A program made the position numbers. Shown piece after piece: positions 42,001-45,000 of a stretch of 64,000 nucleotides of DNA; position 1 is the stretch's first letter, and each line of letters opens with the position of its first letter. Source of the DNA: Candidatus Micrarchaeota archaeon (GTDB lineage: Archaea; Micrarchaeota; Micrarchaeia; Anstonellales; Bilamarchaeaceae); assembly GCA_038046805.1 (NCBI GenBank), contig JBBSVO010000002.1, forward strand, positions 16,684 through 80,683, written 5' to 3'.

Positions 42001-45000
42001 TCATTTCTAACACATACAAGGAAAAAATATTTGATGCGGCTTATTGATCAATATGCAGAATAAAAAATATGACATCGGCACACCATTTCCTAAGGATTGA
42101 GAATTTCGAAGAAATTCGAGAGAATTGAAATCAGCAGATTTCAATCAGAAACGCATTGTGTGTCCTGAAACCTCGTAGCTCAGGCAAACGATTCTGAAGA
42201 GCGAAGCATTGAAACTTGGCAAAGCAAGTTTCAAAATTTGAAAAAATTACATTTTTCAAAGCTCTTTGGAAGCTTTTGGCATCAGCCAAATGAGTTCACA
42301 CCAAGCATGCGGTCTGAGTCGGAAGCTTTTGGTAACAGCCAAATAGGACTTCTCCTAGCATGTTTTGTAGTGGGGAACTAAAATGTGGATATCCACATAA
42401 AGGTAGGCACTACAAAAGGCACTTGATTTGTATCTGGAAGCTGTCGAGTAGCACCCAATTTCGCGTACTTTCATTTGTCCGCCCATTCATCCCATACTCT
42501 TTTCGTTTCCGGCTCTCGCTTTCCGCAAGGCGGCTCTACTTTAATTTTTCCGTTGTCGTCAAAGAGTCTTGCATAAACCTGTCCAAGCGTTCGCTCTCCA
42601 TCCCTTTGGCGCGAGGTTGTTTCATTTATTCCGCCTCGCACGCGCGTAGCCTGTAATGCCATTATTCTTCTGCGTGTTTTTTTGTTCATAAAAATTTGTT
42701 GTCCGTAGTTTTGTGTAAACATCTATGATTTTGGGTAAACACCTTACGTAGTGATCTGCGCGAACGAAGTGAAGCGCTTTGTTACCGTGATCAACGATAG
42801 CGAAGCGCAGAAAGGGAGTAATTTCATGCTTCTCAAGACAGCCCGGCAGCGCCCCTGATTCTGACTTATAGTGATCCAAGAAAGTCTTGCGAAACTTTCT
42901 TGTCTCACTACATAGCAAACCACGCCGTCATGGCAAAGCAGCAATAGTATAGAGTCTTGCATTACTTTCGTGGTTTGCTATAAGTAAAGCGGGCTTCCCC
43001 GTTTGCCGTGAAAACCAGCTGTGTTGCCTTTTCCTTTTGAGCCAAAACGCAACATGTCCGAGACGCGAAACTCGGAACCGGAAACGCTTTTGTCTAAGCC
43101 ACGCTCCGTCGCCATACATCGGCGCTGTAGCGTGTCTGCTCCACCCTGTGAACTTACAAGCACAGAGAAATAAACTTATGGCTGCTCCTTTCGGTCTGAC
43201 CAGATTCGCGTATTCCTCTGCCATATAAGGCAGGGTTTCGACGCTTACGGAAAAGGGCGCAACAGATTCTCGCAACGCCCGGGGCATTCGGTCCGTCTAA
43301 AGGGGATTTACGGTGCCGGGACCCCTAGCCCCGACCTAGCCCAGTAAGTATATGTTATAATAAGGTAATTAAGGTTTATGTAATGGGTTTCGGGTCTTCA
43401 GTTCCGCGTTTTGGAAGATAATTATTTATGGTCTCGCATTATGTGTTCCGAGCGCAAGAGTGTTTGCTAGTAAACCTCTATGGTTTTTGGCAAGTGCCCG
43501 TCCTTGTCCTAATATATTTGAAATCCAAAAGGCTTGTGGCACGCAGATTTAAAAAGAAATTGCTCTATATTCCATCATTCGACCAGATATTTCGGGTGAA
43601 ACAATGGGACTTTTTGATAAAATTATGGGAAAAGGGGAAACAAGTTCAGACGTACCTGACCTTGAGGACATGATTGGCTCTGAAGGAGACTTAATAAGTC
43701 CGCCAGCAGACTTTTACGTGAAGAGGGTTGACCTCAGAAACGAAGGAGATGCAGACCTTGTTTTGAAAGAGCTTGGGCAGAAAAATGTTATTATTTTGAA
43801 TGTTCTTCCGCTTTCAAAGCAACCAAACAGGTTGAAATCAATTATCGCAAAGCTGAAGTCACACACTGGAAAGATTGACGGGGATATCGCATTGCTCTCA
43901 TCAGACTCAATTCTTTTGACTCCGAGCCATGTTAAAATTGTCAAATCAAAACCAAAACCCTCTGGAACAAAAATAGAGTAACCAACCAGATCGTTTCTTT
44001 CTTTTTATATTTTATTATTTTTCTTTATTTTCATTTGTTGAGCCGCGCGCAGAAGTAAGCGGGGAAAATTTCAGTTCTTTTTTAGGTAGTCCATTTCTAA
44101 AAATGTATTGTGTGGCACAAGGCCAATTACCCATAACTACCGGTTAATTATTCTTCCCATTTTCTATTTTCTCCGTCTTTGTCCCTTTTTCCTCTTTCCC
44201 GTTTCCATTGCTCTTCCCATTTTTCTCGTTCTTTCCGTTTATCACTCTTATAAAAATCTCCCCGAAAAGAACGTCCTGTTTTATATCAACTTCTTCTTTT
44301 TGCGTGAGATGAAGCACAGATAAAAGAGAATAAAGAATGTCCTTTGGTGAGCTACTTTCTACTACTCTGGAAAATATTGTCCATCCTTCCGAATCAGTTG
44401 TTGATTTTATTTTGTCAAGCGTTGTTTTCATTGTTTCTTCCAAATCATAACTGTTAAGCTTGAGATCAACGAAATCCTCGATTCCACCACGTTTTTTAAC
44501 AACGCGGTCAGTTTCATCGTATTTTATTATCCGCTCCATTTCGGAAACCAATTCCTCGAGCGTTATCTGCCTTTTTGGAGGGACGCGCGAAGGAAACATC
44601 AGTTGTGGAAGCGGTTCAATTATTCCATCCTCCTCTCCTTCCAGAGGTACAAGCACCTCCTGTTGTGGCAAGTCATACAATTTCACCACGCTACTTTTGT
44701 ATCTCAGAAGAATTGCAGATGCAAGAATTATATTTGCCGGAACGGAAAATTCCATTTTTTCCATTTCTCTTACGCGTTTTACAAAGGCGTCTGCCACGCT
44801 TTTTATATCAACATCCCAGGGGTCAACCCTTTCGGTGGAAATCAACTCAAGAAGAAGCATCTTCCAGGTTGGTTTAGATACCATTGCCTCTAGGTTAACT
44901 GCTGACATGCTCATTGTTTTCTGGTCCATTCTGATCGCCGTTGAACTGTTTATCAACTTACTCATTTAAATAACTTTTCTACGCCTTTTTACCCAAGGCG

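Follow-up and report, generated by a model that had tools for sequence, protein, structure and literature searches.

An archaeal SRP RNA gene split by two stacked bulge-helix-bulge introns, probably spliced in succession

Bulge-helix-bulge introns and SRP RNA

Archaeal introns of the bulge-helix-bulge (BHB) type have been described in tRNAs, rRNAs and an mRNA (cbf5), and pre-tRNAs with nested introns whose removal depends on order are on record (Sugahara 2007 and Tocchini-Valentini 2009, both as cited in PMC3978253). SRP RNA is linked to the same machinery in Thermoproteus tenax and T. uzoniensis: according to the accessible text of Plagens et al. (2015, PMC4731332), their permuted SRP RNA is processed by EndA cutting at a BHB, and an ancestor with simple BHB introns is called plausible. 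Circular pieces of SRP RNA have been reported from other archaea, where they are not termed introns in the accessible text (PMC3326292, PMC12558985).

Here, we describe an SRP RNA gene from the Micrarchaeota whose helix 5 is interrupted by two BHB introns lying back to back. The stack is real, very probably spliced and probably so in two ordered steps. As described for Thermoproteus, an SRP RNA would depend on RtcB and the tRNA splicing endonuclease acting at a BHB. In contrast to the circular permuted SRP RNA portrayed there (PMC4731332), this gene is collinear and has a stack of two introns with internal BHBs, and its product is linear. The locus appears to supply the intron-bearing kind of SRP gene postulated as forerunner of the permuted Thermoproteus gene, but in a different phylum and with no ancestry implied.

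With the nested pre-tRNA introns, the stack shares the dependence of the last intron’s BHB on another intron’s prior removal; judged by their description in PMC3978253, the differences lie in the host (SRP RNA), in the single exon strand and cut point that serve both introns, and in the lack of an exon between them. Closer by phylum is Ca. Micrarchaeum acidiphilum ARMAN-2, which, as portrayed in PMC3239211, has an epsilon2 enzyme, short introns at odd sites, relaxed motifs and two neighbouring introns in one T-loop; the substrates reported there are tRNAs, with SRP RNA not named in the accessible text, and the neighbouring introns occupy different positions (53/54 and 59/60). Transposition of tRNA introns has been proposed for Thermoproteales (Fujishima 2010, as summarised in PMC4090602). 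There, as among rRNA and cbf5 BHB introns, look-alike short introns occur at many sites and in different host genes (PMC4090602, PMC3978253, by their summaries), whereas the intron family described below has tRNA, 16S, 23S and SRP RNA hosts within one archaeal family.

Already known are BHB introns as such, the order-dependent removal of such introns from tRNAs, and the processing of one SRP RNA by EndA. Searches of open-access PMC and bioRxiv turned up no description of an SRP RNA gene split by introns, nor of a stack with zero exon, an RNA joint of this kind or such a spread across the phylum; subscription papers and supplementary tRNA or SRP tables could hold cases. In the accessible text of individual sources, the word ‘intron’ does not occur in PMC2905702, nor ‘SRP’ in PMC6125680 and PMC6379350.

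The interrupted gene and its insert

Within the window—the whole 64,000-nt stretch of DNA analysed here—the SRP RNA gene runs from about 43343 to 42990 on the minus strand (Table 1). Rfam model RF01854 matched 43344-43094 with 66.3 bits (cut-off 60), the sole Rfam match in the window, although its fit is wrong at the 3′ side, where intron 1 is taken as the 3′ strand. The gene shows the features of a large-form SRP RNA, namely an Alu domain, a long helix 5 and a helix 8 with SRP54-binding loops, in keeping with the RF01854 score above cut-off, and the consensus fold of 24 relatives carries two-sided changes at 64 of its 80 pairs. Helix 6 is absent from this consensus fold, a departure from canonical archaeal SRP RNA. 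A search for SRP19 (PF01922) gave no match in the 41 family genomes searched, with a control that was detected in 3 of 14 genomes and missed in Sulfolobus. The box upstream of the gene we take to be TATA-like from the archaeal TATA consensus. The SRP exon has one match only in this genome (1.2 Mb, 16 contigs); since the assembly is 86% complete, a second SRP gene could be absent from it. A permuted gene order of the Thermoproteus type was not found, the gene being collinear with its intron-less relatives.

Table 1 Features of the SRP RNA gene, with positions in the window
Feature	Position	Strand	Basis and remarks
TATA-like box, probable promoter	43366..43372	(-)	~25-30 nt upstream of the SRP RNA 5′ end; from sequence; similar A/T boxes precede relatives’ genes
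SRP RNA exon 1: Alu domain, helix 5 5′ strand, helix 8 with tetraloop, first part of helix 5 3′ strand	43136..43343	(-)	RF01854; alignment and covarying consensus fold of 24 relatives; X1 RNA contig
BHB central-helix exon strand GAGC	43138..43141	(-)	Serves both introns in turn; in the mature RNA partly paired with the helix 5 5′ strand
Intron 1, 42 nt	43094..43135	(-)	Primary transcript forms the BHB (helix 4/4, 6-bp stem); homologous single introns in relatives
Intron 2, 57 nt	43037..43093	(-)	BHB only once intron 1 is gone: helix 4/4, stem 5 bp, no exon-side helix
SRP RNA exon 2: remaining helix 5 3′ strand and closing strand	42990..43036	(-)	Ungapped against G001; base-paired to exon 1 when the spliced RNA is folded; first 10-11 nt directly follow exon 1 in the X1 contig

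Measured between the same end marks, the gene is 356 nt long, as against 257 nt in a genome of the same genus, G001. The two are collinear after taking out a 99-nt insert (43135-43037), which bears out the preliminary description in its statement that this sister species lacks the insert. The coordinates, lengths and pairings given there for the two introns (42 and 57 nt) likewise held to the base, as did the state of the second BHB before and after removal of intron 1.

In the primary transcript, the exon strand GAGC (43141-43138) forms all four central-helix pairs with GCUU (43099-43096) at the end of intron 1. For intron 2 as encoded, it is GCUU that faces GCUC, with two of four pairs; once intron 1 is cut out, GAGC instead meets GCUC (43042-43039), restoring four of four pairs next to a 5-bp stem. 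Both introns have 3-nt bulges on opposite strands, with the cut after the second nucleotide. Flanking helices are present on both sides of intron 1 (inner 6 bp, outer, that is exon-side, 2 bp) and on the inner side only of intron 2 (5 bp), which makes the latter a relaxed motif. One exon helix strand and one cut point are shared by the two introns, with zero exon between them.

The insert can be divided into two BHB units (helices 4/4, stems of at least 5 bp) in a single way. Dinucleotide shuffling of the insert never reproduced a two-step arrangement of this quality (0 of 20,000 shuffles); holding the last 6 nt fixed gave it 4 times in 20,000. A BHB motif on its own is no evidence, given that a loose scan (helix 4/4 including G-U, stem of at least 2) returned hundreds of matches in 360 nt; the intron claims made here rest on placement set by alignment, not by motif scan. 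Other readings of the insert were rejected, both as a group I or group II intron (it measures 42 plus 57 nt, and the window holds no Rfam match besides SRP RNA) and as protein-coding sequence.

Probable removal of the insert

RNA runs X1-X4 were examined as assembled contigs over 42500-43800. X1, an aquifer metatranscriptome, holds 0.40 of the query words (X5-X8 share 0.05) and yielded one contig of 195 nt and depth 6.25 that agrees with 43135-43319 (185 nt) with 0 differences. Its 10 loose letters equal window 43035-43026, a 10-mer unique in the 1.3-kb stretch. Exon 1 match and loose letters together indicate that the contig skips exactly 99 nt between exon 1 and exon 2. The joint fits removal of 99 nt at the BHB register, with one ambiguous A (43135 or 43036) as the BHB model predicts; it is seen in one contig that extends 10-11 nt beyond it, and contigs tell neither strand nor level. 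The same letters would also be expected from an intron-less allele of the species. X1 has no contig on the insert or its flanks, a weak observation as contigs drop variants, and neither an exon 1-intron 2 intermediate nor intron circles occur in the contigs of any of the four runs, contigs being prone to drop rare forms.

Contigs from X2, X3 and X4 differ at 7-8 positions and carry uninterrupted G001 sequence at the joint, which identifies them as relatives and X1 as not G001. Scanning JGI metagenome contigs with the end of exon 1 returned one record, of G001 type, in a collection from which near kin of this genome are possibly left out. We regard removal of the insert by BHB splicing as very likely. 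The proposal that the insert is intronic and leaves at the BHB cut sites is supported by the X1 joint, by the enzyme set of the host and by BHB inserts, 13 besides this one, in SRP genes elsewhere in the order.

As to that enzyme set, a 400-residue frame encodes an epsilon2-type endonuclease, matching PDB 4fz2 over its full length (E 8e-137). PDB 4FZ2 is the epsilon2 endonuclease (EndA) of ARMAN-2, and the host protein has identical residues at the positions aligned with Y236, H251 and K282 and with the loop lysine K161. In the accessible part of PMC6379350, the first three residues of epsilon2 EndA are described as catalytic and K161 is tied to broad specificity; enzymes of this type cut strict as well as relaxed motifs, according to the account in PMC3239211. 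RtcB, SRP54 and FtsY are all encoded in the genome, so that by gene content the host combines an endonuclease able to cut non-canonical sites with RtcB. Its tRNA genes are heavily interrupted: ARAGORN called 14, of which 13 have introns and several are doubtful. An automatic search for stacked introns in these tRNAs was crude, resolving 10 of 32 T-arm candidates, some wrongly.

As the likely reading, we propose a working SRP RNA gene in which a stack of two BHB introns splits helix 5 and is taken out one intron at a time by the tRNA-splicing machinery. First, exon GAGC and the end of intron 1 would pair, both bulges would be cut by the epsilon2 endonuclease, and RtcB would ligate exon 1 to the start of intron 2. 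The same GAGC would then pair with the end of intron 2, placing the newly made bond in the 5′ bulge, where it would be cut again before exon 1 is ligated to exon 2. The resulting RNA of ~255 nt, an end product seen once in RNA, would free GAGC for helix 5 and fold like that of intron-less relatives. As no exon lies between the introns, this would amount to recursive splicing at one phosphodiester. In spliceosomal recursive splicing at zero-length exons, too, the first removal regenerates a splice site at the joint; chemistry and machinery are different there, and the likeness is an analogy only. The stack offers a small natural substrate for tests of recursive splicing with recombinant epsilon2 enzyme.

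The order of these steps was addressed by folding the full-length precursor with ViennaRNA at 37 C and 15 C. The intron-1 motif has a probability of 0.55 at 37 C and 0.42 at 15 C and lies 0.4 kcal/mol above the ensemble at 37 C. For a motif that would release the whole insert, the corresponding values are 8e-7, 4e-10 and 8.7 kcal/mol. After step 1, the intron-2 motif reaches 0.03 at 37 C and 7e-4 at 15 C; it is not the ground state, standing 2.1 kcal/mol above the ensemble at 37 C and 4.2 at 15 C, which speaks against ordered removal, as do its lack of an exon-side helix and the short inner stems found in relatives. In silico, the later BHB arises only after the earlier intron’s removal, as in nested introns. 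The gap of ~8 kcal/mol between the intron-1 and whole-insert motifs favours two steps, and given BHB splicing, we consider two ordered steps quite likely to be the main route. The preliminary description had held that the introns must be spliced in order; structure and energy side with it, as intron 2 attains its four pairs only after intron 1 is cut, whereas the X1 RNA shows the end product alone. The contig is silent on order, since two-step and one-step routes end in an identical product.

A one-step exit of all 99 nt, in which GAGC pairs directly with the end of intron 2 while the motif of intron 1 is vestigial or serves a side route, is unlikely. It would involve four Watson-Crick pairs and yield the joint seen in X1, its short stem has parallels in single introns of relatives (one uninterrupted inner pair in G062, two in G078), and the tolerance of epsilon2 EndA for relaxed motifs, as reported in PMC3239211, keeps it open. 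Against it, the motif is less favourable than that of intron 1, by ~8 kcal/mol at 37 C and ~12 at 15 C; intron 1, moreover, is transcribed first and can capture GAGC, and the inner stems of 6 and 5 bp are both intact, of which a pure one-step route needs neither.

Readings without splicing at this locus fare worse. That the insert is a retained two-hairpin expansion in a working SRP RNA, with the X1 contig derived from an intron-less allele or strain, is compatible with the letters of that contig. In the minimum-energy fold of the precursor, the remainder of helix 5 still forms around the insert, and hairpin expansions that are not BHB introns do exist in these RNAs, as in G145 and in the Alu extension of genus g3. 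Yet the geometry of a BHB is matched base for base in both halves of the insert. Intron 1 has homologues in the anticodon loop of a tRNA and, among relatives, in 16S and 23S genes; other SRP inserts split the helix-8 tetraloop or the Alu loop and would disrupt conserved motifs if they were retained. A lesser point is the lack of an X1 contig on the insert, weak for the reason given above. We consider this reading very unlikely, and less probable still is a dead or mis-assembled gene, whether two alleles with one intron each were fused in assembly or this is a pseudogene whose working counterpart is missing from the assembly. The sequence does come from a metagenome assembly that is 86% complete, and the insert is known here from that assembly alone; against this, the ~5 nt that the two introns have in common at their border are too few for an assembler to have fused them, the changes in exons 1 and 2 relative to G001 pair with one another, and exon 1 is present in the RNA library without a difference.

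SRP RNA inserts and mobile introns across the phylum

A sequence-only model built from 24 intron-less SRP genes found a match in 93 of 99 genomes of the family; 46 of these loci were inspected (20 picked for odd span) and the remainder were called intron-less by span. BHB inserts interrupt the SRP RNA in 13 of the 93. Six lie at the same helix-5 site as here (this genome, G000, and G035, G002, G021, G078 and G062), two at other helix-5 sites (G010, G025), two in the helix-8 tetraloop (G120, G112), one just 3′ of that tetraloop (G026) and two in the Alu loop (G029 and G105, the latter cut by the contig start). Genes broken at contig ends (G019, G070, G101, G107) could hide further inserts. In other families of the order, where 71 of 77 genomes matched and 20 regions picked by span plus 4 loci were inspected, tetraloop introns were found in G042 and G040. 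Relatives with introns at the same site and in the tetraloop had been announced before and exist in kind; of the genomes named for this comparison, only G001 and G021 fit under the handles used here; G028, G030, G265 and G275 show no insert of this kind, and the gene of G101 runs off its contig.

All 14 complete inserts tested in the order have a 4/4 helix. Among 153 pairing-blind excisions, the BHB placement ranked first in 10 of the inserts, second in 3 and seventh in 1, and shuffle probabilities ranged from 0.004 to 0.086 per insert; these 14 were chosen after inspection, and kin among them are not independent. Two other expansions were not classed as BHB introns, namely the Alu hairpin extension of genus g3 and a two-hairpin insert in G145, whose best BHB excision fails to restore the relatives’ sequence. 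G001 and G024 are without inserts that their congeners have, and this patchy pattern suggests repeated gain or loss. A GTDB-wide pattern search for tetraloop inserts gave 8 matches, comprising 3 Micrarchaeota SRP genes with a BHB and 5 chance matches with neither SRP context nor BHB; it is no census, having missed G112 by one base.

In a sample of the phylum, 146 of 151 genomes matched, and 60 regions from other orders, picked by span, were inspected with insert length set by a downstream anchor rather than by pairing. An insert at one site 3′ of helix 8 was present in 35 of them and absent from 21; 4 were not anchored. The helix is 4/4 in 29 of the 35 inserts; 2 were mis-anchored and proved to be 4/4 on inspection, and 4 (family f15) reach 3/4. 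In controls, slid registers gave 0 or 1 inserts with a 4/4 helix, and swapping partners among rows gave a mean of 20.7 and a maximum of 26 (versus 29). Helix partners change together, with C-G in 19 and U-A in 14 at one position, and the changes follow lineages. The inserts are 15 to 62 nt long, and their removal restores the spacing of intron-less genes. In two distant families, they were counted in at least 31 of 68 genomes (f13, at least 14 of 44 matched genomes, a denominator with G195, which is marked unpublished; f14, at least 17 of 24), counts that take unfetched short-span genomes as being without an insert. The f13 and f14 inserts are probably BHB introns, beside which a structural hairpin stands as an alternative. 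No second stack was found among the 35 inserts at this shared site or seen in any other insert, leaving G000 as the sole case.

Intron 1 aligns with the single introns that occupy the same site in G035 (z 7.9), G002 and G062 (z 6.1 each) and G078 (z 4.9). It also aligns, with z of 7-14, with 16S inserts of G028, G007 and G008, a 23S insert of G033, a tRNA insert of G018 and one in its own genome’s tRNA-Leu. The last, on contig C11, is its best in-genome match (21 of 24 identical, E 0.018). The preliminary description had likened intron 1 to a 16S rRNA intron of this genome, which did not hold: no likeness was found to the assembled part of the host’s 16S (z -1.2) or to its 23S (z -1.6). Judged by these alignments, intron 1 is a member of a mobile mini-intron family in tRNA, 16S, 23S and SRP RNA genes within one archaeal family. 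Four copies of a 7-nt repeat lie in the loop of intron 2; arrays of this repeat number 18 in the genome and 0 in a shuffle. Intron 2 is resembled by the single intron of G021 (z 4.7, inflated by repeats) and itself weakly resembles a 16S insert of this genome, via the 7-nt repeat. Each half of the stack appears to have free-standing relatives at the same site.

Intron 2 may have come first, with a mobile element of the intron-1 type arriving later in the same target, one that an allele with intron 2 keeps intact. The pairing partner of intron 2 is the exon rather than the end of intron 1, so the simplest history would have intron 1 landing at the preserved 5′ junction of that allele. Rather than serving regulation, the stack probably arose as a side effect of repeated insertion. 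With two different introns at one bond and look-alikes in tRNA and rRNA genes, the locus provides a handle on how BHB introns move.

On a wider scale, we lean towards the view that SRP RNA is a fourth regular BHB-intron host, common across Micrarchaeota (about one in seven genomes of this family and about half of those in two distant families, at one shared site), so that SRP assembly in much of the phylum would need tRNA-splicing enzymes; to this the present locus would add recursive BHB splicing, with the endonuclease re-cutting the ligase’s fresh bond, fed by a mini-intron family moving among tRNA, rRNA and SRP RNA genes. This would make SRP RNA one more entry among the few RNAs known to be spliced by the tRNA machinery of archaea. 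SRP RNA genes of DPANN archaea are likely missed or given wrong ends by standard models, as happened here when Rfam took intron 1 for the 3′ end.

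Domain composition of the SRP RNAs

The SRP RNAs of this group (window 43343-42990 in G000, the genome of the window; alignment A1) possess an Alu domain and lack helix 6, as does the bacterial large-form SRP RNA. In this they differ from the general archaeal SRP as outlined in PMC2905702, where both helix 6 and SRP19 are described as general in archaea. A search for SRP19 in 41 family genomes (PF01922, whose control matched 3 of 14 genomes, missing Sulfolobus) returned no match.

Inserts and rearrangements in SRP RNA genes of other genomes

Inspecting 60 regions from other orders, chosen by span, revealed an insert of 15-62 nt with BHB anatomy at a single shared site 3' of helix 8 in 35, its absence in 21, and four that could not be anchored. 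The insert-bearing loci (L084-L098, L101, L105-L123) belong to genomes of families f13, f14 and f15; judging from sequence, the insert is possibly an ancient, widely spread SRP intron of another order.

The tetraloop introns of G120 (L038) and G042 (L057), genomes of different families, are nearly identical base for base in their 3' halves, and the Alu-loop intron of G105 (L055) ends with a similar stretch. Two hairpins expand helix 5 in G145 (L056), and an additional Alu-domain hairpin occurs in all seven matched genomes of genus g3 (L041-L047); a reading of these expansions as BHB introns was rejected.

In the SRP gene of G002, which retains its intron, the 5' strand of helix 5 is missing ~50 nt between two copies of a short repeat; the gap reflects either a true deletion or an assembly error. 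G117, rated 6% contaminated, carries a highly divergent second SRP RNA gene (L051, G117:C122), which probably stems from a different organism.

Repeats and further interrupted RNA genes in G000

At least seven further copies of the ~110-nt element exist in G000, and G001, from the same genus, is devoid of it at the corresponding place behind the SRP gene. Arrays of at least four 7-nt units were found at 18 places in G000, as compared to none in a shuffled genome; they lie in intergenic regions, behind RNA genes, in one 16S insert and in intron 2 of the SRP gene.

Given its span of 4.4 kb versus a 3.0-kb model, the 23S gene is likewise interrupted. In the variable arm of the tRNA-Leu gene, a putative second intron of 40 nt would, from its sequence, belong to the intron-1 family of mobile mini-introns.

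Locations of elements and interrupted RNA genes
Feature	Location	Remark
~110-nt element, inverted ends	window 42986-42875	immediately adjoins rear of SRP gene
Degenerate 7-nt unit array	window 43085-43058	in intron 2
Degenerate 7-nt unit array	window, about 43386-43413	
tRNA-Leu gene	L153, G000:C11:15220-15487	long anticodon-loop insert
16S fragment	L104, G000:C4:1-1085	~4 short inserts
23S gene	L145, G000:C2:119808-124180	
SRP gene of G002	L027, G002:C12:67786-67945
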